Virus record (IMG/VR): IMGVR_UViG_3300047160_006212
Length of the DNA: 64,000 bases
Reading direction: 5' to 3' (one strand)
Source of the DNA: an uncultured virus (IMG/VR IMGVR_UViG_3300047160_006212)
Taxonomy: Duplodnaviria > Heunggongvirae > Uroviricota > Caudoviricetes
The notes under the pieces were generated by a model that was not told where the DNA came from, ran no database searches, and worked only from the letters and a program-made list of their open reading frames with translations. How positions within the stretch are numbered: the stretch's first letter is position 1; each line of letters opens with the position of its first letter. The position numbers were made by a program, and so were the translations under genes. This document shows positions 3,682 to 41,543 of this stretch, one piece after another.

Positions 3682-3734
3682 GGGGTCCTCCTGTAGGTTT
3701 CATGGTATTGGTAACTCGGATTTGGGGCAAAGTT

Positions 3735-4193
3735 ATGGATGCCCATAAGCTACGGAACGTCAAACACGAATTGTTTTGCCAGATGATCGTGGCGGGTGCC
3801 CCACGCGGCGAAGCTTATCAAAAATCTGGTTTCCAAGGTAAGACTGAGCATGCAAACACGTATGGAACCATGCTTCTTGCCAAGCCTGAAATCAAAAAGC
3901 GCATTGAACAACTTTTACAAAACTCCGCCAGCCGCGCCGAGATTAGCAGAAAACAGATACTTGAACGGATTATGGAAGATTGGGATAGCTCTCGTAGATT
4001 GGGGCAGATGTCGAGCGCACTGAAGGCCGCCGAACTCATGGGCAAGGAACTTCACAAGATGTTCGTGGAGCGCAAGGAGGTCGGCGGCCCCGGTGACTTT
4101 GACAGCAAGACTGAAGACGAGTTGAAAGAAATCGTTCGTGAAGGCCTCAAGGAACTCGGTTGGGATGATCCCGGTCCGAATTCCCTAAATTAG
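3735..4193 (+). CDS. terminase small subunit
   Basis: KHELFCQ...AYQKSGF...LLAKPEIKKRI...ALKAAELMGK matches TerS HTH family pattern. Confidence 0.8.
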   Translation: MDAHKLRNVKHELFCQMIVAGAPRGEAYQKSGFQGKTEHANTYGTMLLAKPEIKKRIEQLLQNSASRAEISRKQILERIMEDWDSSRRLGQMSSALKAAELMGKELHKMFVERKEVGGPGDFDSKTEDELKEIVREGLKELGWDDPGPNSLN

Positions 4194-14961: not shown

Positions 14962-15531
14962 ATGAGCAAGATTCGTCCGGATTATACAAGCGCGTGCGCG
15001 GATGGCCGGTCGCCGTGGAACAAATCCCTGCGGGATCAGCTGCGTCTGTTGCGGGCGCAGCAGAAGCCGTACATGACGCTGCATCAGTTGGCGTTGCTGG
15101 CCCAGACCGATGCCTCCACGATCTCGGAATTCGAGACCGGGACGCGTCTCAACATCCAGTTGCAGACGCTCAGAAAGTGGGTCCGGGCCTTGGGCTGCGA
15201 GGTTTACATCAAGATTGCGCCAGCGTCGAAACGTCACCCCGGCAAAGATACGTTCCTGCTGGAAGGTCCCGCGTTGCCGTCCCCGCCAAAACTGATCCGT
15301 AAAGGGACGGGGGTAGGCCGTTGGCAGGCCGCAGAATACCGACGTTTGCTGGGGAAAACATATGTCCCGCCGGGACGAAAGCAGTTACCCAAAGGGAAGG
15401 TCGGTAGGCCACGTTCCCGCAAGATGCCTGCGTGTGATCCGACAAACCCATTTGACTTTGACGACACGTCGCCGCCCAGGCCGCGCGGCAGTCCGTCACC
15501 AGCCGTTGGAACGCAGCGGGGTCCAGACTGA
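14962..15531 (+). CDS. XRE-family HTH protein
   Basis: LRLLR...TLHQLA...STISEFETG...LQTLRKWVRALG. Confidence 0.75.
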   Translation: MSKIRPDYTSACADGRSPWNKSLRDQLRLLRAQQKPYMTLHQLALLAQTDASTISEFETGTRLNIQLQTLRKWVRALGCEVYIKIAPASKRHPGKDTFLLEGPALPSPPKLIRKGTGVGRWQAAEYRRLLGKTYVPPGRKQLPKGKVGRPRSRKMPACDPTNPFDFDDTSPPRPRGSPSPAVGTQRGPD

Positions 15532-16294
15532 AAGCCGCATCAGGCGTGTCAGACGTGCGATCAAGGACAAGATGCTTCTCGATGATCGTGGCGCCAAACG
15601 CAACAGCCGCGCAGGCCGTGCCGACGCCCGGCGTATGATCACTGAAGCCCACGGCAGCCACACCGTTCAGCTCTCTCAGGGGTCCAAGGATGCCCAGATT
15701 GGCGTCTTGGGGGAACGCAGGATAGTTGCTGATGCAGTGCAACAGGGCCAATTGGCGGCAGCCACCCCGTTTTGCGGCAGAGATGGCTGATTTGATCTCC
15801 CCATGTGTTCCCATCCCGCAGGAGATGATCAAGGGAAGCCCTGTGGCAGCGGCCTTGCCGATCAAAGGCGTGCTCACCAGCTCGAAACTGGCGATCTTGA
15901 GCGCCGGGACGCCCAATGAGACCAGAAAATCGACGGTTTCAAGGTCAAAAACGGACGAAAAGCAGGTTATGGGAAGGCTTTTTGCGAAATTTATAATGTC
16001 TTTCGCCATACTTGGCGGCGTTTCAGCCTTCTTGTAAAGCTCATAGAGGTCTTGGCCCGCCCACAACCCCGCACCGATTGTCCCAGCCGTCTTGGTGCAG
16101 ATGTTATCCGCCGTGTAACATTGAATCTTTACACAGGATGCTCCACTCTCTTTGGCAGCTATGACCAAATCCTTAGCGGTCTTGATATCTCCACCATGAT
16201 TTGAACCTATTTCAGCAACTATGAAGGGAGGATAGTCGGGACCTATATTACGAGTTGCGATTTTCACGGATACGGTCCCTTCGTGCTTGCTCAT
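15209..16294 (-). CDS. pseI: pseudaminic acid / N-acetylneuraminate synthase (PseI/NeuB family)
   Basis: [38 protein letters not shown]-terminal SAF-like domain. Confidence 0.9.
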
Positions 16295-16733
16295 GCTGTT
16301 TTCGACATGGACGGCAGTATCTACTACCCTTGAACGTGTAAGTATTTTTGGCATTAAACTCATGTCCTTTAGGACAATGGGTTTTGTCTCGCCTCCATCC
16401 ATGACCTATACTTTTCATGCGTCCTTTCCTTGAAGCGTCCTGAAGATTGTCTTTCTGTGTACCGATAAACAGATGATCAGGTCTGACGCATTTTCTGTTG
16501 TCACAATGATGGCAGGCTTGCATTCCTTTTGGAAATTCATCTAGCTCATCGCGTATCATGATGGACATGCGATGCGCTCCATATCTTCTGCCTTTTGCGC
16601 CTATCCGTATCGTTCCATACCCGACACCATCCAGCCTACCGGTCCATTCCCAGCAGTCATCACCGTGCTTAGGGACCATAATGCGTTGCCAGAAGTATCT
16701 TTCTAGCTCGCGTCTATCGACAAACTTCTTCAT
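16248..16733 (-). CDS. HNH homing endonuclease
   Basis: CWEWTG...AHR...[15 protein letters not shown]...KTHCPKGH. Confidence 0.9.
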
Positions 16734-16738
16734 GGAAA

Positions 16739-16948
16739 TCAGGTCCGATGTTTCGGTTTGATATTTTCACCGGCAATACCCGCTATCAAGTCGGCGATTT
16801 CATCATCGTTTTCGGTGATCTGGCGCAGCACGATCTGGGTTTCGTCCGGGGCGTTTTCCAGTGCGATTTTCAGGATGTCCATCCAGAGGATATTGTTCCG
16901 GCTGCGCGCCTGCTCGATCAGCTTCAGGAAATCTTCCCATGTGCTCAT
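16739..16948 (-). CDS. small hypothetical protein in sugar cluster
   Basis: 69-aa ORF coupled to aminotransferase. Confidence 0.7.
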
Positions 16949-18015
16949 AGGACTTCCCCCAATCTTCGTACCATATCCCTGATCTCGTCTGGGGTTGGAT
17001 CAATACTGCAAATTTCCATCAGCACCATCTTGTCTTCAATGCGTTCCACGACCGGACAACAGACAGGCTCGGTCTCAAGAGCCGGAAGCCGGTACAGTGG
17101 TTTCATGTATCCCCTGCGCCAGGGAAGCGGCAGGGTCTTGTTGCAAGGTTCTTTCAACTGCGCAGCCCAGCAGTAATAGGCATGGCCGCAGTCGGGACGG
17201 GCAAAGGGAATGGTCAGCGGCAGCTTGGCATCAACGACGGCAGCTTCCAGCGCCATGGCGAACGCCAATCTTCCTTTCATGATCGCCTTGGCTTTGCTCA
17301 GCTGAACCATGGCCATCGCGGCGGTGACCTCGGTCATGCGCAGGTTCAGCCCAAGGAGGCCGCCCCTGACTTCACCATGGTTGATAGCCTCCCGCAGTCT
17401 TTTGTCGTTCTGGACATTGTGGCAGACCACGACGCCGCCTTCACCGGTTTGCAGATGCTTGTGAACGTTGAGGGAAAACACGCCGAATTGCCCAACCGTG
17501 CCGCAAAGTTTGTCGTATTCGCTGGCAAAGATTGCCTGCGCATTGTCTTCGATCAGGTAGATGTCATGCTTGTCGCAAATAGAGGCAAGGCGTTTCAAAT
17601 GGGCTGGCTGTCCGAACAGGTTGGTGACAATGATTGCCATGGTATTGTTGGTGATCAAGCCTTCGACCAGTTTAGGGTCCATGGTGTAGGTGTAGGGATC
17701 AATATCACACCAAACCAGCTTGGCGCCCAGCAGTTTGGGCGCCGCAGCGGTCGCGGACATGGTGTAGGGCGATACAATGACTTCATCGCCGACTTCGATC
17801 CCAATGGCCATGCATGCCGCAAGAAGCCCGCTTGTTCCTGAATTGCAAGCGACGGCATGCTCGACTTTAAAAGTTTTGGCCCATTGGTATTCCAAGCGAT
17901 GAACGTCTTCGCCGCCGTGCGCGCTGGTGGCGACGTAGCCGGACAACGGTTTGTTCATGACTGTGTAATGGGCGATATCGGCCTCGGCTTGCCCTATGGA
18001 ATTGAACGGCTTCAC
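16945..18015 (-). CDS. DegT/DnrJ/EryC1/StrS aminotransferase (PseC-like)
   Basis: NSGTSGL, IEDNAQA, FSLNVHKHLQTGEGG. Confidence 0.9.
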   Translation of the reverse strand: MKPFNSIGQAEADIAHYTVMNKPLSGYVATSAHGGEDVHRLEYQWAKTFKVEHAVACNSGTSGLLAACMAIGIEVGDEVIVSPYTMSATAAAPKLLGAKLVWCDIDPYTYTMDPKLVEGLITNNTMAIIVTNLFGQPAHLKRLASICDKHDIYLIEDNAQAIFASEYDKLCGTVGQFGVFSLNVHKHLQTGEGGVVVCHNVQNDKRLREAINHGEVRGGLLGLNLRMTEVTAAMAMVQLSKAKAIMKGRLAFAMALEAAVVDAKLPLTIPFARPDCGHAYYCWAAQLKEPCNKTLPLPWRRGYMKPLYRLPALETEPVCCPVVERIEDKMVLMEICSIDPTPDEIRDMVRRLGEVL

Positions 18016-18434
18016 AGCGTTTTCCGTTTCTTGTTTCTAAGACGCTGACAGGCTCTGCAGGCCCGGCATTTCCACCCTCGATATATGGAATGCCGCGTAT
18101 TAGCTTCATTGAATGGATGTCCCTTTGCGCAATGAGTCTTTTCTCTGTTCCATTTTCGTCCTATGCGGACATTTTCGGCATTGGTAACCACTCGAAGATG
18201 GTCAGGGTTAACGCATTCCGGTACTCTGCACAAATGGTCTAGAAACATGCCTTTTGGAATTGGTCCAAACTTGTCTTCATATGCAAGTCTGTGGGCGAGT
18301 TTTGTTTTTAGTCCTACATTCCTTTTGGTGTACTGGCCATAGCCGTGCGTGGTGTAATTCAGACACCCCATCCATATCCAGCAACCGCACTCGGTGACAG
18401 GGAAAACAAATTTCCAGAAAGTTTCGTCAAGCAT
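18012..18434 (-). CDS. HNH homing endonuclease
   Basis: GCWIWMG...AHRLAY...DHLCRVPECVNPDHL...KTHCAKGH. Confidence 0.9.
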   Translation of the reverse strand: MLDETFWKFVFPVTECGCWIWMGCLNYTTHGYGQYTKRNVGLKTKLAHRLAYEDKFGPIPKGMFLDHLCRVPECVNPDHLRVVTNAENVRIGRKWNREKTHCAKGHPFNEANTRHSIYRGWKCRACRACQRLRNKKRKTL

Positions 18435-19357
18435 TAGAGTGTCTTTCTTATTTGCTCGACGTTCAGCCACTTTTCATTTGAGTCTGAACAATATGAAAAT
18501 CCGGGTTTGATGTTGGATATGACTTCTGGAGTTATCACGTACCTATCCCATGTCTCAAGCCCGGATATGGCTTCATCGGCCGTCATCAAACACTCATGAA
18601 GCTTTTCGCCGGGTCTGATGCCAATGACTTTCCACTTGCCTTCTGGTTGGATAGCCTTGGCCAGATTGATGATTTCTATCGACGGTATTTTTGGGATAAA
18701 TATCTCTCGACCCTGCATCATATCTTCGCAGCTAAGTACAAAGTCTACAGCTTGATCGAGGGTGATCCAGAACCTTGTCATTCTGGTATCCGTAATCGAC
18801 AGTGGCTTTCCTGCAGCGTGGATGGCTTTGAAAACAGGCACAACTGAACCTCGGCTATTACAAACGTTACCGTACCTAACCACGCTGAACAGGCAGCGGC
18901 CAGCAGATAAATTATTAGCGGCGACAAAGATTTTTTCGGCACAAAGTTTTGTAGCTCCGTATAAGTTAAGCGGCGACACAGCCTTGTCGGTCGATAAGGC
19001 AATAACCCGCTTGACACCTGCGGCGATGGCGGCGCGGCAGACGTTTTCTGCACCGATAACGTTGGTAAGAACTGTTTCAAATGGATTGTACTCGCAAGTT
19101 GGCACGATCTTAAGCGCCGCCGCACTAAAGACCGTGTCAATGCCATACATCGCCATTTCAAGACGTGCGCGATCTCTTACATCCCCCACGAAGTAGCGTA
19201 GGCAAGGATCATCATAAGTCCTCGCCATGATGTCTTGCTTCTGTTCATCGCGGCTGAAAATAACTATGCGTTTTGGCTTTAAAGGCAAGACCTTTTTGAC
19301 GAAGGCATTTCCCCAGCTACCGGTTCCTCCGACCACCATAATGCTGCGGTCTTTCAT
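18434..19357 (-). CDS. pseB: UDP-N-acetylglucosamine 4,6-dehydratase (inverting)
   Basis: GGTGSWG, SRDEQKQ, AALKIVP..EYNP, LSTDKA, YGATK, RYGNV, GIRPGEKLHE. Confidence 0.9.
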   Translation of the reverse strand: MKDRSIMVVGGTGSWGNAFVKKVLPLKPKRIVIFSRDEQKQDIMARTYDDPCLRYFVGDVRDRARLEMAMYGIDTVFSAAALKIVPTCEYNPFETVLTNVIGAENVCRAAIAAGVKRVIALSTDKAVSPLNLYGATKLCAEKIFVAANNLSAGRCLFSVVRYGNVCNSRGSVVPVFKAIHAAGKPLSITDTRMTRFWITLDQAVDFVLSCEDMMQGREIFIPKIPSIEIINLAKAIQPEGKWKVIGIRPGEKLHECLMTADEAISGLETWDRYVITPEVISNIKPGFSYCSDSNEKWLNVEQIRKTL

Positions 19358-21321
19358 CTTACCCCCTGTCCTTCAATCAGCCTTCCATCAAGCTCTGCGC
19401 CGTCCTTGATCGCCCTTAAACTGCCATCACATGCGGCAAGAATATGGCGAATCTGTGGTTCCTTGTGGGCAAAACAGGTATTGAAACTGCTGATAATGAG
19501 AACCCCCCTGCGAGCCATCTCTTGGATGAAGAGACTTTGGATATGTTTAGTCTTGAACTTGATGCGCGGCAGTGCGGTCTGGCCGTACAGGAAAATGTCA
19601 CTGACATCATGCTTGGCAAGCAGCTGGATGAATTCATGCCAGATGGTTCTGCCAATGGCGTCCAGATAGTGCGGAACATTCTCGGCTTCCAATTTGCGGA
19701 TCGTCGCAATCGCGGCGGCAATCGACAAGGCCTCGCCAAAGAAGGTGCCGGAATAGGAAATCTCTGTCATGCGTTCCATGAACTTGCGTTTGCCGACCAA
19801 GGCCGAGATCGGCATGCCGTTGGCCATGGATTTGCCGAATGTGCTCAGGTCAGGCGTCACGCCGTAGACTTTCTGCAAGCCGCCCATCCCAAATCTGAAA
19901 CCACTGATGATTTCATCAAAAATCAATAGGGTTCCTTTAGTCTCTGTTACCTGCCGGACAAGATTAAGGTCTTTCGCATTCATGAATTCCGGCTCTATGA
20001 TAATTGCTGCTGCCTCACCTATTTCTTTTATGTCTTTGCTGGTTAGCTTTTTGACTGCTTCAGGAATTCCATTGTTGCGGATGGGATCATTGGCGACACT
20101 CCAGTCGTGCCAGCCATGGTAATAGCCGCCTGTGATAATCTTATCCCGTCCGGTGATATGACGCGCCAGCCGCACTGCCGCTGATGTTACATCACTGCCG
20201 TTCTTGCCGAACCGGACCATGTCGGCGGATGGGATCAGCCTGTTCAGCATCTTGGTGAGGATCAGTTCCTGTGGCGTGGCTAGCGAGAAGGAAATCCCCC
20301 GATCCAGTTGTGCGCGAATAGCAGCGTCAACATCAGGATCACGATAGCCAAGAATATTAGGTAGCAGCCCACCAACGCAATCGACATAGTCATTTCCATC
20401 AATGTCGAAAGCATATCCGCCGTCGCCGTGACTGAGGAATAAAGGCGATGCCCCAGCCGGGAACATGAGCTTCGATTTGGAATAGGTCTGGGCGCCAAGA
20501 GGGATGTATGTCTCGGCGGTCTGAAGCCAGTTCTTGGAATTTTCATATTTGCGTGGCGCTTGAATGGCTTCATCGGTCAGGGCTTCGTAGAAACGCTCAT
20601 TGCGGTCGTATTTGGCATTGATCTTTCTGAGATCAGGCTCGCGGTCGAGCACAGCAAGAATATCCAGATAAGAAGGAGGCTTCCCAAGACGCGCCAGTCG
20701 TCCAGCCACCTGTCGGATGAACTCCAAGTCTTCGGGGCTGTCCAAGACCCATCGCTCACGATGGAGATCAGGAAGAGGACAGACCAGATTGGCATGATGA
20801 AAACGATGGGAATTACGAACGATGTAGCGGGTAACACAATCGCGGTCAGTGTCACGGGTGGCCTCCCCTTGCGCTATGCTTAAAGCGCGAATGGTCATGA
20901 CCTCCACATCCAATCCGTCAGGGTATGTCGGTGGATTGGTATTGGTCGCGTAGTCGGCATTGGTCATTTTGCGAAGCTGGAGGACTTCATCGATTATCTG
21001 AGGATCAAGGAAGCAACAATCACACGTGATTCTGACAAGAATATCGCCGTGATACTTGATCGCAGCTTGATAAAATCTGTCTAGAACATCTGTTTCGCTA
21101 CCGCGAAAGCAACGTATTCCGTATCTGTCGCACCAATCAGAAATTTGGTCGTCTATTTTTAGTGTAGACGTGGCTACGATGACTTCATCAACTAATTCTG
21201 CTTTACGGCAAGCTTGGGTTACCCAACCTATGCAAGGCTTGTCGCCGATTACTTCCATAACCTTGCCGGGCAGGCGTGTTGAGGACATTCTGGCTTGGCA
21301 AATGGCTATAGTCCTATTCAT
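19354..21321 (-). CDS. SpsF/PseF-like cytidylyltransferase fused to class III aminotransferase
   Basis: QARMSSTRLPGKV, RGSETDVL; C-terminal FGKNGSD, FDEIISGFR, FGKSMANG. Confidence 0.88.
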   Translation of the reverse strand: MNRTIAICQARMSSTRLPGKVMEVIGDKPCIGWVTQACRKAELVDEVIVATSTLKIDDQISDWCDRYGIRCFRGSETDVLDRFYQAAIKYHGDILVRITCDCCFLDPQIIDEVLQLRKMTNADYATNTNPPTYPDGLDVEVMTIRALSIAQGEATRDTDRDCVTRYIVRNSHRFHHANLVCPLPDLHRERWVLDSPEDLEFIRQVAGRLARLGKPPSYLDILAVLDREPDLRKINAKYDRNERFYEALTDEAIQAPRKYENSKNWLQTAETYIPLGAQTYSKSKLMFPAGASPLFLSHGDGGYAFDIDGNDYVDCVGGLLPNILGYRDPDVDAAIRAQLDRGISFSLATPQELILTKMLNRLIPSADMVRFGKNGSDVTSAAVRLARHITGRDKIITGGYYHGWHDWSVANDPIRNNGIPEAVKKLTSKDIKEIGEAAAIIIEPEFMNAKDLNLVRQVTETKGTLLIFDEIISGFRFGMGGLQKVYGVTPDLSTFGKSMANGMPISALVGKRKFMERMTEISYSGTFFGEALSIAAAIATIRKLEAENVPHYLDAIGRTIWHEFIQLLAKHDVSDIFLYGQTALPRIKFKTKHIQSLFIQEMARRGVLIISSFNTCFAHKEPQIRHILAACDGSLRAIKDGAELDGRLIEGQGVR

Positions 21322-21815
21322 TTCGTCCTCGCAAATTCGCCGTAATACATTTTGGCAGCATTGACATATGCTTCATGGGCTTCTTCTGGTGTTGAAAAGC
21401 ATCCAAGGTAGATTCCCTTGTTATTGCGGGATACTCTTGCGAAGAATCGTCCGGTTCGTTTGCCGCGTGACTGAACTTCGGTGACGCCCTTTGGTAGAAT
21501 TCTATGTTCGGACGGCTTTCTGTTTGCATTATTATCTCGACGGGTGGCTATTCGTAGATTTTCCCATTTGTTGTTAGCTCGATCACCATCGATATGGTCG
21601 ATTTCCTTCGGAATCGATCCTGTCATATACAAAAAGGCTAATTGGTGCGAGTAATAGCGACGCTTATCAATGTTGAAGGCCACGTATCCATGCACTCTCC
21701 TGCCTCCTACCACGCAATTAGCTTTAGCGCGTGAACGACAAATAAGATTTGTCCACATTCCAGTGCTTGGGTCATAATTTAGGACCTCTTTGAGCCTTTC
21801 TTGGGTTAACATCAT
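21318..21815 (-). CDS. HNH-AP2 homing endonuclease
   Basis: LTQERLKEVLNYDP, IDHIDGDRANN..NLR, YLGCF..EEAH.AY..GEFA. Confidence 0.9.
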   Translation of the reverse strand: MMLTQERLKEVLNYDPSTGMWTNLICRSRAKANCVVGGRRVHGYVAFNIDKRRYYSHQLAFLYMTGSIPKEIDHIDGDRANNKWENLRIATRRDNNANRKPSEHRILPKGVTEVQSRGKRTGRFFARVSRNNKGIYLGCFSTPEEAHEAYVNAAKMYYGEFARTK

Positions 21816-22702
21816 TCCAGACCCGCCATTTTCCTTGCTGCCATGACTGTTCTGAGAGCACGAATGCCATCGTAACCGCCTGCGAGCCATTTCCCGTGGT
21901 CTGAAGTCTCTATGACGTTGATGAACGTCTTGAGTTCATCGACATAGTTGTCATCAAAGCTGTCATGACCCTGAAAATACAATGCCATGCCTTCGCCATT
22001 GATGCGCATGGCGATCTCACGGCGGATCAGGTTGACATAAATTGAAGCTACGCTGCCCTCGATCCAGTAAAATCGCTGCTGTGGGTCGGTGTAGTAGTCG
22101 GCCTGAATGAAAACCCGGTCCGCAACGGACGGAAACTTCATAGTGATGAAGCACTCGGTCGAATCCTTGCCTTGATCGTCCATTGGAGCGGTGCATTGAA
22201 TGACTCCGCCCTCGCCGAAGAAGAAATGCGCCAGATCGATCTCATGAACAGCCCAATTTCGGATGACGCCATCACGCAGATAGGGCGATTTGTCGGATTT
22301 CTGCAAAACGGAGAACGATGCGCACTGAATGTCACCGAGCAAGCCCTTATTGAGAACTCTGACTGTTTCTTGAACGCAGGAATGAAAACGCAGATTGAAG
22401 CCGGTGGCGACAATGAGGTCATACGCGGCGTTTGAAAAAATGTTCTCGATTGTATTCGGGCTATCATAGCCAATCGGCTTTTCGACCAGCACGTGTTTTC
22501 CGGATGCAAGGGAATCATGAAGATCAATAACGTGATCTTCCGTAGGTGAGGCCACAATGATGGCGTCGGCCCATCCGATGACATGTTCACGCGTGAAGTC
22601 ACCGATTTGAGGATCATAAACGCGAGTTTGATGACCAAGCGCTGTAGCGTTCTTGGTATGTCGCCGTCCAATTGATCCATAGCCGAGGATGCCGATTTTC
22701 AT
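21812..22702 (-). CDS. Gfo/Idh/MocA oxidoreductase
   Basis: GYGSIG, GKHVLVEKP, HEID. Confidence 0.88.
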   Translation of the reverse strand: MKIGILGYGSIGRRHTKNATALGHQTRVYDPQIGDFTREHVIGWADAIIVASPTEDHVIDLHDSLASGKHVLVEKPIGYDSPNTIENIFSNAAYDLIVATGFNLRFHSCVQETVRVLNKGLLGDIQCASFSVLQKSDKSPYLRDGVIRNWAVHEIDLAHFFFGEGGVIQCTAPMDDQGKDSTECFITMKFPSVADRVFIQADYYTDPQQRFYWIEGSVASIYVNLIRREIAMRINGEGMALYFQGHDSFDDNYVDELKTFINVIETSDHGKWLAGGYDGIRALRTVMAARKMAGLE

Positions 22703-23310
22703 AGGGCCCATCCCTGATCTGTATCTTTGCGCAAAGCCCAAACGCGGGTTTCTGTATCGGGGTAAAACTCACCGATCAACTGATAGGCCGGGTTGCCCGT
22801 CCAAAGTTTGCTATAGTTCATCTTGTAGGAGAACAGGCCTTCCTTGTGCTTGTAGGGCACCTTGCGCGGATTCAGGGCAGCAAAATCATGGATGATGATA
22901 TGGCCACCTTCGCGCAACATAGCGTCGGCTTCCATGACGACACGTTGCAACAGGTTGCGGTCCACCAGATATAGGCAAAAGGCATAGATGATCAGATCGG
23001 CGGATTTGATCTTGGGGAAATCAACCGTGCCAACCATGAATTCGACCCGTGGGGCTTTGTATGACTTGCGTGCATCCTCGATGGCGTCGTGTGATGGATC
23101 AACGCCGAGAATATGGGCGTCTGGAAAAAGCTGGTGCAGATTGTCAACTTGCCAGCCGTCAGAGCAACCAAACACGACGATCTCTGTGGGCTTCAGGTCA
23201 AGATTTATGACCATTGGCGTGATGGAGTCACGCTTTGGCTTGTCCTTGTTGCGATGATACCATGCATCGCCTTCGCCTTTAAGAAAGGCTTCGGTTTGGG
23301 GTACTTCCAT
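22699..23310 (-). CDS. class I SAM-dependent methyltransferase
   Basis: FGCSDG, GVDPS, FCLYLVDR; EGDAWYHRN N-terminus seen in sugar-cluster methylases. Confidence 0.8.
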   Translation of the reverse strand: MEVPQTEAFLKGEGDAWYHRNKDKPKRDSITPMVINLDLKPTEIVVFGCSDGWQVDNLHQLFPDAHILGVDPSHDAIEDARKSYKAPRVEFMVGTVDFPKIKSADLIIYAFCLYLVDRNLLQRVVMEADAMLREGGHIIIHDFAALNPRKVPYKHKEGLFSYKMNYSKLWTGNPAYQLIGEFYPDTETRVWALRKDTDQGWAL

Positions 23311-24163
23311 TTGCGTTCCTCAAGACCAGAAGGAGATTGGGAGAGCATCCGCATTCATTGCCGAAGGTCGGCATCTGCGCTGCAATTCTATTGATATCGC
23401 TGTCATAATCGGGTTCGATACCTTTTTCCTGGCAGATTTTGGCATAGAGCACACGGGACGCCATGTAGTAGAAATGGCCGATGTTTTCGCTGTATTCGAG
23501 CGCGAAGATGTTCTGTCCCTGGGCAATAAATCGCTTGAAACTGTCATCCGGAATGTAGAAATTGTGCCAGCGTTCGGTGATCGGAGGTAGGCCAAGCGCG
23601 TTGCGAATGAGATTGAGGTTTGCCAAGCCTTCCTTGAAGTTTTCCACCAAGATCAGGCGACCATCAGGTTTCAGCATCTTTCTCATTTCGAGAATGGCAA
23701 TTTTCTGTTCTTCCCAGTTCGATAAATTGATGAGACAGCGCGTAGAAATGACCACGTCATAATGACGCGGAATAAGATATCGATTGCGCGACAGAGATAG
23801 AACGTCGCCCTCGTGGAACTCGATATTGGGTCCACTGCCCAAATCCTTCGCCTGTTTGATCATCTTCGGCGAAAAATCCACCCCAACAACATCAGAATCC
23901 GGAAACTTGTCGCCAATCATATCCGTGGTGAAGCCGTTCCCGCAACCAGCGTCAAGGATGGTCTCATGGGGCATCAAGCCAATGACCCGAAGAATAGATT
24001 CTATTTCAAGCTTGCGGTAGTGCTGATCTGGGTTGGTGGCCTTATCGGAGTGACCGTATTTCTCAGCCATTTCATTCCAGAACCCGAGGACATCATTCTG
24101 GGCCTCGCCGTTCTCTTTGATCTGATTTGAGGGCGAGGACTTTGGTGGCGCGGATTTTGCCAT
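23279..24163 (-). CDS. class I SAM-dependent methyltransferase
   Basis: ILDAGCGNG, GVDFS, LKPDG. Confidence 0.85.
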   Translation of the reverse strand: MAKSAPPKSSPSNQIKENGEAQNDVLGFWNEMAEKYGHSDKATNPDQHYRKLEIESILRVIGLMPHETILDAGCGNGFTTDMIGDKFPDSDVVGVDFSPKMIKQAKDLGSGPNIEFHEGDVLSLSRNRYLIPRHYDVVISTRCLINLSNWEEQKIAILEMRKMLKPDGRLILVENFKEGLANLNLIRNALGLPPITERWHNFYIPDDSFKRFIAQGQNIFALEYSENIGHFYYMASRVLYAKICQEKGIEPDYDSDINRIAAQMPTFGNECGCSPNLLLVLRNANGSTPNRSLS

Positions 24164-24665
24164 AGATGAGCAGGTCCTTTGGTTGTCCGTTGAACAGGAA
24201 GTGGTCCTTGATCACGGCCTCTTGGGTAAACTCAAGCTTCTTGAAGACACTGATCATGGCCTCATTGCAAGCCATGGTGCCGCCTTCGATCTTGCGAAAG
24301 CGCTCGCCAAACAGATATTCACAGGCGGCGTCATAGGCTTCGCAGGCAAAGCCACGTCCCCAGTAGCGCACGTCCCCGATCAGGATGCCGACATTGGCGA
24401 CCATGTTGGCATGGTCGAGCAACGCGGTCATTGACCCGATAGGGTTTTCCTCAAGCTTGATATCCCAGTACATGTCCTCATTGTGGATATAGGATTGCAG
24501 GTATCTGTACTGGCTGTCCTTGGTGTGTTTCTGATGCCGTTGTTCCGAATAACGCGTGACGACCGGGTCGTTCAGCCACTTCAGATAATGCGTCATATCC
24601 ATACCGCGATGGATCATGGGTTCGGACAGGATCAGCCGGGCTGATCTGAGGGTGGGAGCCTGCAT
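24093..24665 (-). CDS. GNAT/RimJ-like N-acetyltransferase (PseH-like)
   Basis: YLKWLNDP, GILIGD..WGRGF, NEAM. Confidence 0.85.
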   Translation of the reverse strand: MQAPTLRSARLILSEPMIHRGMDMTHYLKWLNDPVVTRYSEQRHQKHTKDSQYRYLQSYIHNEDMYWDIKLEENPIGSMTALLDHANMVANVGILIGDVRYWGRGFACEAYDAACEYLFGERFRKIEGGTMACNEAMISVFKKLEFTQEAVIKDHFLFNGQPKDLLIYGKIRATKVLALKSDQRERRGPE

Positions 24666-24918: not shown

Positions 24919-27540
24919 ATGAATGATCTCCTGCGTTCAGAAATAGCCAGAAATGTGACACTGGCGACCGCCAAGCTTCGTGAAAAGGCTGAAGCCCGGG
25001 CCATGGAGGGAGATTTACTCTCCTTCGTGCGCTATGTCTGGCCGGTTGTGGAACCAGCCATCCCCTTTGTGGAAGGGTGGGCGATTACCGCCATTGCCGA
25101 GCATTTACAGGCTGTCACCAAGGGCGAAATAAGGAGGCTCTTAATTAACGTTCCACCTGGCTTTACCAAGGCGATAACTTACGAAACCCTGGTCCCGACC
25201 CTTGGCGGCTGGAAACCTCACGGGGCATTGAGAATTGGGGACTATGTTTTTGGGCCAGATGGCTTGCCCCGGGTGATCACCAATCGTACGCCCAATGTGC
25301 TGGAACCATGTTACGAGATTACATTTGACGATGGTTTAAAGATTACGGCTGGCGCCGCTCATGAATGGGCGATTGAAAGAGATTTTCCCAATCAAAACCA
25401 TGATGGAAGAGGAAAGTGGGGCAGAAAGTCCTTAATCGTAGAGACCAGAGACCTCCTTGTTGGTAAGGGGCGCCAGCGGTCAGATCGCATTCCTATGTCC
25501 GCTCCTATTCAATTCCCGCGTGCCGATCTCGAAATTGAGCCATATTTGTTGGGATATTGGCTTGGTGACGGAGATGCTGGTTTGGCAGTTATCTATTGCG
25601 GGAAAACGGATTTGGCTCATGTAGAAATCCTTGGGCGGGAAGTGGTGGGTACTGGAACCGCCCACCGAGTTCAAATAGATGATCTAAAAGAACGACTTCA
25701 CTATTTTGACCTTGTCAAAAATAAACATATTCCGGAGGAATATTTTGAGGGTAGTGTAGCCCAGCGCTGGGAACTTGTTCGTGGTCTTATGGATAGTGAT
25801 GGTCAGGCTGACATAGATCGAGATGGTCAGGTAAGATGCAGATTTACTAGTGAAAATGAAAAGATCATCGATGGGTTGCATAGGATTTTATCCAGCCTTG
25901 GCATCAAGGCCTCTCGTAATGGCAATAGGTTAAGGTTTACGCCGCCACTTGGCGCTAAGGTATTTAAACTAGAAAGAAAACAATCTCGTCTCGACGCCAG
26001 AAAAATACCGCCCCGCGCAAGTCGCATTGGGTATCGATATATAAAATCTGTGGTTCCGATTGGTCAGAAAGTCGTCAATTGTATTGAAGTAGATGGGGGC
26101 ATTTATGTTGCAGCAAGTCATTGTTTTGTAACGAGAAATTCACTTCTTACAAACGTCTTCTGGCCTGCGTGGGAATGGGGTCCGCAGAATCGACCATGGT
26201 ATCGCTATGTCTGTGCTTCCTATTCGAACCATCTGACAGAGCGCGATAATTTGCGCTGCCGCAATGTCGTCATGAGTGAGCGCTACCAGCGGCTTTGGCG
26301 GGGCCGGTTTCGTATCTCCAATGAGCAGTTCACCAAAGTCAAGTTCGCCAATGATCAGACCGGATGGAAGCTCGCGACGTCGGTCGGCGGCATCGGCGTC
26401 GGTGAACGCGGAGACCGCTTTGTAATCGATGATCCGAACAACACCATGATGATGGAAAGTGAAGCGGTGCGTTGGACCACAAATATGTGGTTTACCGAAG
26501 TTGTGCCAGATCGTCTGAATAACCCCAAGGAAAGTGCCATTGTCGTGATACAGCAGCGGCTGCATGAGGAAGATGTGTCCGGCGTCGCGTTGGATAATGA
26601 TCTCGGGTACACGCATTTATGCATCCCCATGTACTATGTGCCAAACGGGATGGTATGCGGCTATGATGTTGAAGGAAAGATCAGAAACTTCGATCTCTGG
26701 GATGACCAAGAAATTCCCCCGGAGAAAGTCTTTTGGGTCGATCCCCGTCACAATGAAGGTGACCTTGCGTGGCCGGAACGGTTTGGCACGGAACAGTGTG
26801 AAGAAATTCGGCATGCCAAGAAAGAGTATGCATGGTCCGGTCAGTACCAGCAAAGCCCTGAAATCCGGGGTGGTTCAATCATTCGCCGCGACTATTGGCA
26901 AACTTGGGATGCGCCTAAGTTTCCTGAAAACATTGAGTACATTCTTGCTTCTTTGGATACAGCCTATACCGAAAAACAGGAGAACGACGCCAGCGCCTTG
27001 ACGATCTGGGGCTTGTTCAGGGACGCCAACCGGAACCCGAAATTTATCCTGTTGCACGCTTGGAACGAACGTCTGGAAATGCATGCGCTGGTCAATAAGG
27101 TCATCCAATCTTGCGCAGGTGATCTGGCAACCGGCCGTCCGCCGGTTGACAGACTTCTGATCGAAAGCAAGGCGTCTGGCTTGTCTGTCAGTCAGGAAAT
27201 CAGGCGTCTGATTGGCTTTAACGGCCTGTTTGGCATCGAATTGGTCAATCCTGGCAAGGGCATGGTTGACCGGGACAAGGTGGCGCGAGCGCACAGCATC
27301 ATTCATCTATTTGCGGATGGGATGGTTTACACGCCAAAGGGCATCACTTGGGCTGATCAGGTCATCAACCAGTGCGCCGTCTTCCCGAAAGGCACCCATG
27401 ACGACCTGGTTGACAGCGTGACCATGGCTATGCGGTACTTGCGCGACTTTGGCTATGCCCTGACCCGCGAAGAGGCCAGATACGAGATTGAGGAACAATA
27501 CAGGTATAGACCCAGAATGGGCGTGTTATATCCGTGTTGA
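24919..27540 (+). CDS. terminase large subunit with intein
   Basis: INVPPGFTK/S Walker A, VIDDP Walker B, QQRLHEED, SLDTA, HDDLVD nuclease motifs. Confidence 0.92.
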   Translation: MNDLLRSEIARNVTLATAKLREKAEARAMEGDLLSFVRYVWPVVEPAIPFVEGWAITAIAEHLQAVTKGEIRRLLINVPPGFTKAITYETLVPTLGGWKPHGALRIGDYVFGPDGLPRVITNRTPNVLEPCYEITFDDGLKITAGAAHEWAIERDFPNQNHDGRGKWGRKSLIVETRDLLVGKGRQRSDRIPMSAPIQFPRADLEIEPYLLGYWLGDGDAGLAVIYCGKTDLAHVEILGREVVGTGTAHRVQIDDLKERLHYFDLVKNKHIPEEYFEGSVAQRWELVRGLMDSDGQADIDRDGQVRCRFTSENEKIIDGLHRILSSLGIKASRNGNRLRFTPPLGAKVFKLERKQSRLDARKIPPRASRIGYRYIKSVVPIGQKVVNCIEVDGGIYVAASHCFVTRNSLLTNVFWPAWEWGPQNRPWYRYVCASYSNHLTERDNLRCRNVVMSERYQRLWRGRFRISNEQFTKVKFANDQTGWKLATSVGGIGVGERGDRFVIDDPNNTMMMESEAVRWTTNMWFTEVVPDRLNNPKESAIVVIQQRLHEEDVSGVALDNDLGYTHLCIPMYYVPNGMVCGYDVEGKIRNFDLWDDQEIPPEKVFWVDPRHNEGDLAWPERFGTEQCEEIRHAKKEYAWSGQYQQSPEIRGGSIIRRDYWQTWDAPKFPENIEYILASLDTAYTEKQENDASALTIWGLFRDANRNPKFILLHAWNERLEMHALVNKVIQSCAGDLATGRPPVDRLLIESKASGLSVSQEIRRLIGFNGLFGIELVNPGKGMVDRDKVARAHSIIHLFADGMVYTPKGITWADQVINQCAVFPKGTHDDLVDSVTMAMRYLRDFGYALTREEARYEIEEQYRYRPRMGVLYPC
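25171..26139 (+). mobile_element. class 3-like intein with LAGLIDADG endonuclease (323 aa)
   Basis: Starts at Ala after Walker A Lys; block B HEW; LLGYWLGDG and RGLMDSDG; block F VNCIEV; ends VTRN before Ser. Confidence 0.85.
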
Positions 27541-33778: not shown

Positions 33779-34420
33779 ATGGTCAACACCATCGCACCCT
33801 TTGGCTTTCGTCAGTGGCGCCGTCTGGACGGCAGCCCGCCGACCGGCGGTTTCGAACAGCTGACCATCGCATCCAGCGACGCCAATCTGTATTTCACGGG
33901 TGATCCAGTCTGCACATCCTCGGCAGGACCGTATGTCGTCGGCGGGTCCACCATTTCTGGCAATGGCCAGATTCGTGGCATCTTCATGGGCTGCGAATAC
34001 TACCTGCCTGCTATTGCCCGCAAAACATGGCAGCCGTATTTTCCCGGGTCCGTGTTGACATCATCCGGCACCTTGGATGCTGCGGCGTGGGTGTCCACCG
34101 ACCCTGAAATGTTGTGGACGGTGCAGTGCTCGACCGGTCAAGGCGGCACCACCGGGTCAGTTATTTCAGCTTCATACATTGGCCTGAACTTTGGGTTTAG
34201 TTCAGGCACATCTTCGATGGGCAACACTCTAACCGGTGTGTCCAATGTGACGCTGAATAGCTCTAGCTTTGCGACAACCAACACCCTGCCGTTCCGCCTG
34301 ATGGACCTTTATTCCAACTGGGTGCCGCCCGGCCAGAACGGCACAGACAACACCAGCCTCGGCAACATCGTGATTGTCGCGCCCAACAACTGGGATCGAA
34401 AGAATACCACTGGTATCTAA
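33779..34420 (+). CDS. putative capsid decoration/stabilising protein
   Basis: APFGFR...GDPV...GIFMGCEY; directly upstream of capsid. Confidence 0.7.
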   Translation: MVNTIAPFGFRQWRRLDGSPPTGGFEQLTIASSDANLYFTGDPVCTSSAGPYVVGGSTISGNGQIRGIFMGCEYYLPAIARKTWQPYFPGSVLTSSGTLDAAAWVSTDPEMLWTVQCSTGQGGTTGSVISASYIGLNFGFSSGTSSMGNTLTGVSNVTLNSSSFATTNTLPFRLMDLYSNWVPPGQNGTDNTSLGNIVIVAPNNWDRKNTTGI

Positions 34421-34553
34421 TGGGAAAGATGGACCATAGGCCATGTTTTTCGCCCAGCCTTTCTCTTTCGAGGAAGGTCCTTCGTAGTATCATAGTACTG
34501 TTGCGCTATGATATTTACGCACCTTCAGTGCAACGAGAAAGGTTAGGATTCCC
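34421..34553 (+). promoter_or_regulatory. structured 5' leader of major capsid gene
   Basis: Nested stems CCTTTCTC/GAGAAAGG, GAAGGT/ACCTTC, TATCATAG/CTATGATA. Confidence 0.6.
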
Positions 34554-35475
34554 GTGCCAGTAGCATTAGCGCAGATTCGCGATTTGCTCTTGCCGGGGCT
34601 TTAAGCTCTGGGGAGTCAGCGGCAAGTATCAACAGATCGAACGTCAGTGGCAGAAACTCTTCCGCACCACTGATTCGAAGATGGCGCTAGAGCGCCGGGC
34701 CTCGATGCGTTATCTGGGGCTCGCGCAGCTGAAGCAGGAAGGTGGTGTGACCGCCTTCGACAATGCGGCTGGCGAGCGCTATGTGTATAACCAAGAGCAC
34801 AACGAGATCGGCCTTGGTTATGCCATCACCCGCAAGGCCATCGATGACAATCTCTACAAGGCAGAGTTTGGCCCATCCAACGATGGTCTGATGGCATCTT
34901 TCCAGCAAACGGAAGAAATCTATGGTGCCAATGTCTTCAATACAGGTACGACTTTTAATAATGCCGTGGGCGGTGATGGGCAGGCCTTGTTCTCGCCGAC
35001 CCATCCGATTGACGGCAATACCATCGGCAACCGTCCGGGCACCGACCAAGACCTCAACGAGACCTCATTGCTCAATGCAGGTATCTCGGTCCGTTCGACG
35101 TGGCGGGATAATGCGGGCCTGAAAATCTACGCCCGTGGCCGCAAGGCTGTGATTCCCACACAGTTGGAACCCATTGCGCTCCGTCTGTTCAGGTCAGAGC
35201 TTCGGCCCGGCACGGCAGACAACGACGTGAACGCCATCCTTGGCATGAACGACAGCTTCAAGGAAGGCTTCATCATCAATGATTACCTGACCAGTTCGTT
35301 TGCGTGGTTCCTGCTGACCAACGTGGATGGCCTGATCTACATGGACCGCATCCCCTTCGAAATGGACATGAGTGTCGAATTTACCACTGACAACCTGCTT
35401 GTAAAGGGTTATCAGCGATACTCCTTTGGCTATTACGATTGGAGATCAGTTTATGGCAACTTCCCAACTTCGTGA
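34554..35475 (+). CDS. major capsid protein, frame interrupted at 34599-34608
   Basis: GTG-started MPVALAQIRDLLLPGL stops at TAA 34602; +1 frame continues LWGVSGKY...MALER...LGYAITRKAIDDNLY...GDGQALFS..HP...RYSFGYYDWR. Confidence 0.85.
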
Positions 35476-35564: not shown

Positions 35565-36113
35565 ATGTCAAGGAAAGCGGACAAGCCTAGGACTTCAATC
35601 GCGCGGGTGCAAGAATTACTGCGATACGAGCCTGAAACTGGAAGCCTGTATTGGGTTATTGCTGTCGGTGGTGGAAACAGGGGAAAGCGAGTACGGGCTG
35701 GGTCACCAGCGGGATGTGTAAGAAGGACAAAGGAAAACGGAACTTGTTATCGATCTGTTTCTATCGATGGTAAACGATACCCCAGTACGCATGTGATATG
35801 GGCTTTAGTTCATGGTCGTTGGCCTAAACAGACAATCGATCATGCTAACGGTGAAACGTTAGACGATAGATTGGAGAACTTACGGGAGGCCACACCTTCA
35901 GAGCAGCAGTGGAACCAAAAGAAGGCAAAGAATAATACCAGCGGCTTCAAAGGTGTCGCTCTATGCGGTCGAAAATGGAAATGGCATATTAGGGTTGATA
36001 ACAAGATGAGTTGGTCAAAACAATCGTGGGATACTGCTGAAGAGGCTTTCGAGGATCGAAAGCATGCCATCGCGGCAATCCACGGCGAGTTTTCCAATTC
36101 GGGAGTTGCCTGA
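35565..36113 (+). CDS. HNH-AP2 homing endonuclease
   Basis: LLRYEPETG, IDHANG...NLREAT, NNTSGFKGV, HGEF. Confidence 0.88.
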   Translation: MSRKADKPRTSIARVQELLRYEPETGSLYWVIAVGGGNRGKRVRAGSPAGCVRRTKENGTCYRSVSIDGKRYPSTHVIWALVHGRWPKQTIDHANGETLDDRLENLREATPSEQQWNQKKAKNNTSGFKGVALCGRKWKWHIRVDNKMSWSKQSWDTAEEAFEDRKHAIAAIHGEFSNSGVA

Positions 36114-37124: not shown

Positions 37125-37397
37125 ATGGCCGGTAAAGCAGCGAAGTTCAAAAGGGGTGGTCGCGAAAGTGGCGGCGGCAAGGACCAGTCTGAAATGGGGC
37201 ATCGCGGTAAATATAATGCCGCTGACAGTGAGGTCATGAAGGAAGCCGAGTCCAAGGATAACGGCTTCAAGAAGGGTGGCAAGGTCATGGGCAAGAAGTC
37301 CAAGGCCCGCATGGACAAGTATGCACGGGGCGGACGGGCCGGTAAGTCGCCGTTCTCGTCAGCCAGGATCAAAGAGAATACGGCGAGCTGCAAGTAA
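37125..37397 (+). CDS. small basic virion-module protein
   Basis: SD AAGGAGG; repeated F/Y-xxGG motifs. Confidence 0.7.
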   Translation: MAGKAAKFKRGGRESGGGKDQSEMGHRGKYNAADSEVMKEAESKDNGFKKGGKVMGKKSKARMDKYARGGRAGKSPFSSARIKENTASCK

Positions 37398-39536: not shown

Positions 39537-41543
39537 ATGCCGCTGGATTTTCCAAATACGCCATCAGTCGGTCAACAATGGCCTTCACCGCCAACTAAGG
39601 GCGTGCCGGTCTGGACATGGGATGGCGTGAAATGGACGAAGTATCCCAAACCATTGTCGGTGCTGGGGTTGGACTTTCCAGACTCGCCGACTTACGGCGA
39701 GCAATGGCCATACCCTCCAGCGGTTGGAATACCGGTCTGGACGTGGGATGGCGCCGAATGGACCATAGGCCCGCTGGTCACTGTAAGTGGTCCGCCCGTA
39801 TCGGGGACGGGCACGGCGAGTGGAATAGGCGATGCCAGTGGCGTTGGTGTCTCGATTGCTTCTGCAGTGGGGAATGCCTCAGGTACGGGCGATGCGAGTG
39901 CGGCGGCAACTGCGATCATTTCCTGTATTGGGAATGCGGCGGGAATAGGCGGGGCGGCAGCCGGTTCAACCGTGACCCTTTCTGGTGTTGGGAATGCGGC
40001 GGGGACGGGCGCGGCAAGTGGGTTGTCGGGTGCTGCCATTGTCGCTGCAGCAGCGGGCATTGGCGATGCGAGCGGGGTTGGAGCTTCGACCGTATCGGGT
40101 GCTGGCAGTGCGGTGGGGACGGGTACGGCCTTCGCGATTGGAGCGTCCACCAATTCTGGGGTGGGCAGTGCGGCGGGGACGGGCACAGCACAGGCACAAG
40201 CGGCGGGGCAGGGCAATGCTAATGGTACGGGAGCGGCATCTGGTGTCGGTGTCTCGGTGGCTCAGTCCGTTGGAGCTGCGACTGGAACTGGTGCCGCGAG
40301 TGCCGTTGGAGCCGCAACCTTCACTGCGACCGGTGGTGCAGCTGGAACGGGTGCGGCCTCTGCCACGGGCGCGTCGACTGGTTCCGGGACCGCCAGTGCA
40401 GCAGGCACAGGCGCAGCCAGTGCTGTTGGGACTGCGATTGCGACTGGTGTTGGCAGTGCGACGGGCACGGGCACCGCGAGCGGGCTATCGGGCGCTGCTT
40501 TTGTCGCTGCAGCGGCTGGTATTGGCACAGCAAGCGCTGTTGGAGCGTCCACCGCTACGGGAACGGCCACGGCAGCTGGAACCGGTACGGCGAGTGCGTC
40601 CGGGGCATCGGTTGCTTCTGCGACTGGTAATGCGGTTGGTACAGGCACTGCCAGCGCTCAAGCGGCGGCACAGGGTGCAGCGGCCGGAACAGGGGCTGCG
40701 TCTGGTGTTGGTGCATCCGTGGCTCGCTCGACGGGCTCTGCAACAGGTACAGGCACGGCTTCAGCTCAGGCGGCTGGGCAAGGCACGGCAGCAGGCACGG
40801 GGTCCGCAGTCGCTGTCGGCGCCTCGACAGCCTCCTCGATTGGTAGTGCGACAGGCACGGGTTCCGCTGCTGCGCAGGCAGCTGGTCAAGGCGCTGCGAC
40901 GGGGACAGGCAGTGCCTCTGCGGTTGGTTTGGTCTTTGCGTCAAGCGTTGGCTCTGCATCCGGGACGGGCACGGCCTCTGCGATCGGTATTGGGGAATCG
41001 GTTGGCAGCGCGACAGGCACAGGCACCGCGAACGGTGTCGGTGCTTCGACGGCATTGGCTACGGCTGCAGCGAGTGGAACGGGCACGGCTTCCGGTGTGG
41101 GTGCCTCGACCGCCTCGGCGACTGCGAGTGCAACAGGAACCGGGTCCGCTTCCGCTGTTGGCAGCTCAGTTGCATCCTCGCCGGCCAGTGCGAGCGGGAC
41201 AGGCACAGCGAGTGCCGTGGGCGCCTCTACGGCTAGGTCTCCTGCATCTGCGTCCGGCACGGGCACAGCGGCGGCACAGGCAGCTGGGCAGGGTGCAGCG
41301 AGCGGAAGCGGGTCTGCCTCGGCGGTTGGTAGATCGACGGTCACGGCAACCGGCAGCGCGTCCGGCACGGGTGCAGCGGCTGCACAAGCTGCGGGTCAGG
41401 GTTCAGCGAGCGGGACTGGCTTGGGGAGTGGGGTTGGTGCGGCGACCGTTTCTGCGGTTGGCAGTGCGAGTGGGACAGGAACGGCAAGTGGCGTTGGTTC
41501 TTCGACATCGTACACGCCAACGTATTTGTACTATGGCTTCTAA
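39537..41543 (+). CDS. Ala/Gly/Ser/Thr-repeat fibre-like virion protein
   Basis: Two LDFP...WTWDG..W modules, then ~570 aa of GTGxAS repeats. Confidence 0.75.
   Translation: MPLDFPNTPSVGQQWPSPPTKGVPVWTWDGVKWTKYPKPLSVLGLDFPDSPTYGEQWPYPPAVGIPVWTWDGAEWTIGPLVTVSGPPVSGTGTASGIGDASGVGVSIASAVGNASGTGDASAAATAIISCIGNAAGIGGAAAGSTVTLSGVGNAAGTGAASGLSGAAIVAAAAGIGDASGVGASTVSGAGSAVGTGTAFAIGASTNSGVGSAAGTGTAQAQAAGQGNANGTGAASGVGVSVAQSVGAATGTGAASAVGAATFTATGGAAGTGAASATGASTGSGTASAAGTGAASAVGTAIATGVGSATGTGTASGLSGAAFVAAAAGIGTASAVGASTATGTATAAGTGTASASGASVASATGNAVGTGTASAQAAAQGAAAGTGAASGVGASVARSTGSATGTGTASAQAAGQGTAAGTGSAVAVGASTASSIGSATGTGSAAAQAAGQGAATGTGSASAVGLVFASSVGSASGTGTASAIGIGESVGSATGTGTANGVGASTALATAAASGTGTASGVGASTASATASATGTGSASAVGSSVASSPASASGTGTASAVGASTARSPASASGTGTAAAQAAGQGAASGSGSASAVGRSTVTATGSASGTGAAAAQAAGQGSASGTGLGSGVGAATVSAVGSASGTGTASGVGSSTSYTPTYLYYGF

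Follow-up and report, generated by a model that had tools for sequence, protein, structure and literature searches.

The major capsid gene in a stretch of 64,000 nucleotides from an uncultured virus of the Caudoviricetes (hereafter the window) is interrupted after its sixteenth codon by a stop and a shift of frame, and a distant relative carries a shorter, in-frame interruption at the same codon. Recoding of some kind at this site is probable, and the two sequences lead us to favour, by a modest degree, a stop-hop that is short, independent of frame and spread by a homing-endonuclease cassette, like T4 mobA/gene 60 without its defining features. If true, the occurrence of 6-nt and 7-nt alleles in the virion protein made in greatest amount would mean that the hop is efficient with only 16 residues of nascent chain and needs no scaffold of 50 nt. 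It would be an independently evolved, much smaller form of the gene 60 strategy, and no natural bypass site would be simpler to dissect; the entire signal lies within about 200 bases, which makes it directly testable in a reporter.

The interrupted gene and its distribution

As the initial annotation had read it, a GTG preceded by AGGA opens a frame that a TAA closes, and the coding sequence goes on in the +1 frame, which from CTC stays open for 289 codons and ends at TGA 35473-35475 (Table 1). The product is a major head protein (PHROG 371), and its gene, the only capsid gene seen in the window, sits in a head module 3' of the terminase, the portal and a GroES-like gene. The structure model of an uninterrupted relative that is 95% identical (P0001; mean pLDDT 86) has the HK97 fold (Z 14.6, rmsd 3.8 and 241 aligned residues against HK97 1ohg), its residues 13-304 aligning with HK97 117-383 and its residues 13-40 with the HK97 N-arm region, and the Mu capsid 9jod is matched by profile (E 7e-7; Mu gpT-like). 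By this modelled fold the product is an HK97-fold major capsid protein, which bears out the identity first proposed. The junction falls in the low-confidence N-arm of the model (pLDDT 66-69); in distant homologs, the length of this arm varies by one residue in 59/117 and by two or three in 2/117.

Table 1. Features at and around the interrupted capsid gene, in positions of the window
Feature	Position	Strand	Remark
Upstream conserved 213-aa gene	33779..34420	+	In most relatives ends <=40 nt from the capsid ATG
47-codon ORF	34420..34563	+	Begins at the stop of the upstream gene (TAATG) and closes at a TAG 10 nt inside the capsid gene; candidate translational-coupling bridge
133-nt leader	34421..34553		Capsid ribosome-binding region and putative relic of an inverted NUMOD4-HNH gene, namely its 5' end with the region upstream of it (whole gene present in L367)
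AGGA	34545-34548	+	5 nt before GTG 34554
Capsid ORF1	34554..34601	+	GTG start 34554-34556; 16 codons, the last CTT 34599-34601 (putative take-off codon)
Candidate 5' stem-loop	34558..34592	+	Ends 6 nt ahead of the take-off codon
Local hairpin	34593..34611	+	Loop contains, or lies close to, the take-off codon and stop
SD-like GGGG	34595..34598	+	Abuts the take-off codon on its 5' side; 7 nt to the landing codon (in L367 AGGG, 6 nt)
Coding gap	34602..34608	+	7 nt: stop TAA 34602-34604, extra G 34605, putative landing codon CTC 34606-34608
Capsid ORF2	34609..35475	+	Residues 17-304; first in-frame ATG 34681 = residue 41
Downstream free-standing HNH gene	35565..36113	+	PHROG 99, HNH_3

The insert is rare among relatives. 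In the best 80 related viral loci, PG-L-x-G is continuous in 77 and carries the same seven bases in three, and the exact spacing is kept in 213 of 224 distinct related proteins, the remaining 11 being without their N-terminus; the homolog spacing given in the initial annotation was therefore right. A scan with the N-terminal codons covered at least 231 loci (111 viral and at least 120 metagenomic) and gave, among the matches listed, 161 distinct site sequences, 158 with standard spacing, one divergent but in frame, and two interrupted. The seven bases are present in four contigs of different length (L001-L003 and L259, one possibly from the window's source sample), and contigs of this lineage are 99.6-100% identical to the window. 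At the level of contigs, presence in several separately listed sequences indicates that the insert is not an assembly error of the window. The stretch was also found in 24 soil DNA runs from 21 studies, four of which may be the source and all of which may belong to one campaign; among the pieces listed for the contigs of four runs, none spans the site and none shows a 7-nt deletion. All close relatives found are without the insert and a distant one has it; of the two outcomes that the initial annotation had tied to such a lack in relatives, neither assembly error nor general decay was borne out.

Further scans returned the same two interrupted lineages, the second of which is known from one assembly (L195, L314 and L367 are the same contig). 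A scan with variable spacing gave 53 matches, 50 normal and three of the window lineage; PG-Leu-TRA gave four, all from the two interrupted lineages, and a leader motif the same four; the single match to PG-Leu-TAG was unrelated. For the MAVNL-type clade, coverage consisted of the stop-codon patterns together with the best 80 loci. Among 159 HNH-related loci there was one new capsid neighbour, L468, which is uninterrupted, and seven further genome loci were all normal at the capsid site. Two N-truncated capsid calls, P0420 and P0437, on contigs of 7.5 kb and 2.9 kb, are candidates for further interrupted alleles. The capsid genes of L468 (nuclease-adjacent) and L295 have TTG starts. In contig L001, 15 differences cluster at 3720-3794 (window 37310-37384), at the end of an otherwise identical stretch, and may reflect recombination or a contig-end artefact.

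A second allele and an inverted NUMOD4-HNH gene

The second lineage reads CCA-GGG-CTT-TGA-CTC-TGG at the site, an in-frame stop with six extra bases at the same codon: the gap is 7 nt in the window and 6 nt in L367, and the stop TAA and TGA respectively, with the flanking CTT and CTC kept. L367 belongs to G002, a complete genome of 71,643 bases with terminal repeats and one capsid match. A reading of TGA as sense was set aside, as its 7,578 columns aligned with the window hold no internal stop and 75 Trp-Trp pairs, no suppressor tRNA was found, and TGA ends 32 of the 59 long ORFs of G002.

The L367 capsid is 67% identical to that of the window, and a quick tree of 134 proteins places the two capsid bodies each amid uninterrupted relatives at 91-96% identity; their grouping as sisters is rejected (p-AU 3e-49, on 42 chosen rows). 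Their 5' ends tell a different history. A GTG start occurs in two of the 161 site sequences among the matches listed, both interrupted; over codons 1-15, L367 ties as the best match to the window among 168 alleles (38/45 bases, against a mean of about 30), and the similarity of the two ends just past CTC-TGG-GG. A shared leader, ORF1 and insert on non-sister capsids imply that these three moved sideways as one unit, and the insert-bearing cassette would be old and its carriers unrelated. Codons 2-15 differ between the two alleles by five synonymous and two non-synonymous changes (p 0.017). Codons 16-40 differ by synonymous changes only from the best relative of each lineage (nine between the window and L007, seven between L367 and L171) and by more from other relatives. 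Such conservation would equally follow from a recent arrival of the insert; the changes that separate the two cassettes speak more strongly for a gene still in use. A one-base error in the single L367 assembly would turn its site into a 7-nt, prfB-like one.

The leader points to the vehicle. In 156 of 200 oriented loci, at most 40 nt separate the upstream gene from the capsid gene, whereas L367 has there an intact gene with two NUMOD4 domains and an HNH_3 domain, on the opposite strand and head-to-head with the capsid gene; L171, its closest uninterrupted relative, is without this inverted nuclease. The window leader aligns with L367 at 89 of 124 columns (72%, gaps included) with a score of 84, which none of 1000 shuffles reaches and for which the best of 193 other loci gives 56; without the last 27 nt, one shuffle in 1000 is as good. 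Since the match covers the nuclease gene's 5' end and the DNA upstream of it, the nuclease appears to have been deleted in the window lineage and the insert kept.

A related inverted nuclease lies 5' of a capsid gene with a normal site in 10 of the 200 oriented loci (four of them only short partial matches) and in L468, and these 11 uninterrupted lineages show that the insert is optional for carriers. Codons 10-11 read GAT-TTG in seven of the ten nuclease-adjacent normal alleles versus 15 of 150 others (p 3e-5), as in both interrupted alleles, a synonymous recoding that fits a possible targeting of the capsid 5' end by the nuclease. The insert may well have arisen as a shield against the cassette's nuclease, which the window lineage would later have lost; whether by this route or another, insert, capsid-gene 5' end and inverted NUMOD4-HNH gene would have travelled as one mobile cassette, and the site suggests that tiny bypassed inserts may be a recurring answer to homing nucleases.

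All 12 loci that carry the inverted HNH gene, whole or as a remnant, share a sense frame free of stops that ends from -10 to +16 nt from the capsid start (window 34420-34563, L367, L035, L268, L277, L252, L156, L306, L345, L340, L344 and L347; in five, the frame reaches the upstream end of the available DNA). Running antisense through the nuclease region, it looks like a candidate translational-coupling bridge across the antisense gene. The leader also holds an inverted repeat at 34488-34510, ATCATAG...CTATGAT in the window and ATGATAG...CTATCAT in L367, a paired change between lineages that may mark an operator or hairpin. No sigma-70 promoter or terminator near the site rose above chance. 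The nuclease closest to that of L367 (P0304, 59%) lies on an 11.7-kb contig, a candidate for a further interrupted allele.

Other features of the window may be noted here. The free-standing HNH gene downstream of the capsid gene has a match in G002/L367 that is 29% identical, with similar genes 3' of several uninterrupted capsid genes, and at least six free-standing HNH genes occur in the 64 kb (at 16248, 18012, 21318, 35565, 47490 and 53520). The large terminase (24919-27540) bears an in-frame, LAGLIDADG-bearing insertion of about 300 residues, likely an intein, which is absent in G002, G004 and G005. An intact nonulosonic-acid-type sugar cluster on the minus strand (15209-24665), shared with G002 and G004, comprises NeuB, a DegT aminotransferase, a polysaccharide dehydratase, a cytidylyltransferase-aminotransferase fusion, an oxidoreductase, two methyltransferases and a GNAT protein. 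The head region also encodes a 668-aa repeat protein rich in Ala, Gly, Thr and Ser (39537-41543).

How the two alleles may be read

A +1 slip from CUU to UUU, the alternative named in the initial annotation, is possible in the window allele, which it leaves open for 290 codons, and fails in L367, where it meets a stop after four; read-through opens L367 and closes after 22 codons in the window. Re-pairing from CUU to CUC opens both alleles and gives the exact family sequence, and in both the in-frame CTC is the first matching, non-overlapping triplet past take-off. The predicted 7-nt hop of the initial annotation is thus favoured as the only single mechanism tested that opens both alleles, and bypassing would be expected to yield just such a pair of gaps, one base apart in length and flanked by matched codons that are conserved. 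Loss of P-site pairing is most likely where CUU precedes a stop (PMC5009743, as excerpted). We lean slightly towards the hop as the main route; in the window allele, where hop and +1 slip both reach the right frame, a mixture may be made, with some product carrying two extra residues.

Ribosomes would start at GTG 34554 and stall with peptidyl-tRNA-Leu on CUU and the stop in the A site; the codon would be released and, after a slide of 7 nt (6 nt in L367), re-pairing on CUC would let decoding resume at UGG to give the exact 304-aa capsid protein. CUU and CUC are decoded by one tRNA-Leu, with a GAG anticodon, for which take-off would be a wobble pair and landing a full pair. The G-rich run 5' of CUU and the 5' hairpin may push the ribosome forward. 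The G-run's duplex with the anti-SD is predicted at -4.9 kcal/mol in the window, in the lowest 3% of 166 normal alleles, and at -2.8 in L367, in the lowest 15%. The 5' stem-loop has 11/13 pairs in the window and 13/13 in L367, with one compensatory G-C/A-U change, while 20-32% of synonymous resamples of codons 2-13 fold as low, which is not significant; both elements are weakly supported as hop helpers. The hairpin at the stop folds as first described (34593-34611, -11.3 kcal/mol; z -3.4 for a 20-nt stretch picked after the fact, -2.2 at 41 nt and -1.0 at 141 nt), its 6-bp stem forms in L367 too, and the codon set CCR-GGG-CTY-TGG that makes up the site is found in 3 of 166 normal alleles. It would span the P site at take-off and, on that reasoning, cannot be the A-site loop of gene 60. 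A resemblance of the hairpin loops to tRNA anticodon loops was set aside, both stem arms being conserved codons. CTY-stop-CTY strings occur by chance, eight times in the window and 11 in G002, the capsid site included in each.

Several observations count against the hop. Unstimulated stop-hops are inefficient, at about 1%, and a capsid needs high output; 11 nuclease carriers are uninterrupted, the L367 SD-like run is weak and the energy of the 5' hairpin is not significant. CUU_U is the best known and most efficient +1 shift site (PMC5009743, as excerpted). The full claim, a natural high-efficiency bypass signal of 6-7 nt, spread by an inverted HNH cassette and required for every capsid subunit, is accordingly advanced as tentative, on sequence comparison.

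A slip-prone CUU_U would suit a different arrangement, in which each allele is rescued in its own way and the capsid is two residues longer, by a +1 slip from CUU to UUU in the window (PGL-K-L-WG) and by UGA read-through in L367 (PGL-X-L-WG). Both routes are open and yield products of equal length, no stop context is leakier than UGA with a C after it (PMC7026636, as excerpted), the insert resembles a duplicated Leu-Trp pair whose first Trp became a stop, and the N-arm is flexible in the model. We nonetheless consider this arrangement rather unlikely: it needs two mechanisms for one homologous cassette, two extra residues at the junction occur in none of the 213 full-length relatives, the prfB-like CUU-UGA-C of L367 would send shifters to a stop after four codons, there is no SD at prfB spacing, neither genome has a suppressor tRNA (indeed, no tRNA gene was found in the window or in G002), and TGA is the stop of long G002 ORFs in the proportion given above. 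A capsid gene that is simply dead, in defective prophages or cheaters borrowing capsid protein from co-infecting relatives, is still less probable. It would explain why all close relatives found are without the insert and why samples differ so little in the window lineage, a near-clonality expected of a prophage carried by a single host strain; Rhizobium genomes contain relatives at 66-67% identity, from which an alphaproteobacterial host is likely, and with about 10 kb of genome lying outside the window, a prophage state may apply. Yet the same codon is interrupted in two phages that are not sisters, by cassettes that are homologous and have diverged, ORF1 shows a synonymous bias, and no other gene is broken: in the comparison with a complete relative, 26 of 44 ORFs match the window and the capsid alone is cut short, and 23 window genes aligned with G002 have no internal stop, two stops falling at alignment edges only. 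G002 is complete with terminal repeats, and contigs with the window capsid ORF extend to 74.5-75.6 kb, a length that equals one unit in relatives. All annotated parts of the window are phage, and no integrase family was found among the 64 window and 21 G002 ORFs scanned.

The two remaining explanations are both very improbable. Removal of the gap from the mRNA, by stem-loop cleavage and ligation or by a trans-acting intron remnant, or its loss through polymerase slippage, can point to an insert that in each allele makes up a hairpin loop closed by 6-8 bp and to group I introns known in phage capsid genes (PMC3706429, as excerpted), but neither locus (L369 and L371) gave an Rfam match up to E 1, a ribozyme would need a far longer gap, the scanned ORFs (64 window, 21 G002) include no RNA ligase family, the longest run is three T, and matched codons and a stop would be unnecessary. 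Least probable of all is a split protein: translation would restart at ATG 34681, and the capsid would be built from that product, with or without the 16-residue peptide. Gene callers do give products of 264 aa on two contigs and 256 aa on 18, and split genes beside HNH elements can function (bioRxiv 2022.08.31.505936, as excerpted). ORF2 of the window has no ATG, GTG or TTG ahead of codon 41, and a start there would remove the N-arm region, since the lost residues 17-40, with the invariant W17, G18, G21, Y23, W30, F34 and S39, align with that of HK97. The calls suggest that gene callers truncate capsids of this kind.

Comparison with known recoding systems

T4 gene 60 and the yeast mitochondrial byps are established cases of programmed bypassing, with support for phiHau3; earlier work on the T4 mobA/gene 60 cassette is reportedly that of Bonocora 2011. 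In the literature covered on capsid bypass, stop-hops, phage coding gaps and short insertions, a scope outside which most subscription journals lie, the present site is unreported. The prfB +1 frameshift (CUU-UGA-C with an upstream SD) shares CUU followed by a stop with both alleles and its exact CUU-UGA-C with L367. Unlike prfB, the +1 frame is closed in L367 and the product here would gain two residues; the prfB SD lies 3 nt from the shift codon, and the G-run here abuts it.

The 6-nt L367 allele would be a textbook stop-hop, as known from synthetic constructs in E. coli (Weiss 1987, in the summary by Atkins 2016, PMC5009743), and of a type for which that 2016 review, in the text excerpted, knew no natural in-frame case. 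Compared with them, the capsid site is natural and in an essential gene, and the window allele spends 10 nt on one residue and changes frame. The UUA bypass in the phiHau3 terminase of Streptomyces phages resembles the present site in its short (10-nt), frame-breaking inserts in an essential morphogenesis gene, and with UUA changed to UAA bypass was seen by mass spectrometry in E. coli (PMC10732093, as excerpted). It is triggered by a hungry UUA codon and proposed to be regulatory, and the excerpted text of that paper mentions neither capsid nor homing.

A close parallel is the T4 gene 39/mobA/gene 60 cassette (Manning and Atkins, bioRxiv 10.1101/2022.08.31.505936, here and below as excerpted). 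The gap, 6-7 nt here, is about 50 nt there, with a take-off stem-loop and an AU-rich 3' part; the codons are Leu here and Gly/Asp there (insert at Gly46/Asp45), and the interrupted gene encodes an HK97-fold capsid rather than a topoisomerase large subunit. The nascent peptide here has only 16 residues, and a take-off stem-loop would find no space 3' of the P site; the nuclease is inverted and upstream, not splitting the gene, and most of its carriers are without the insert, which in the T4 case is reported in every phage with the nuclease. The likenesses are nevertheless several. In both, a free-standing HNH gene stands beside a conserved essential gene, a likeness at the HNH level, the gene being intact in L367 and a remnant in the window; in both, the host-like stretch is recoded, one tRNA reads the take-off codon and the landing codon that matches it, and the A site holds a stop. 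Matched codons that differ by a U/C wobble are found among gene 60 homologs as here, and the gene 60 mini-SD 6 nt before landing may have a counterpart in GGGG at 7 nt in the window and AGGG at 6 nt in L367. As among homologs of the T4 cassette, the nuclease is lost in some lineages while the gap stays, in keeping with an old element and scattered carriers.
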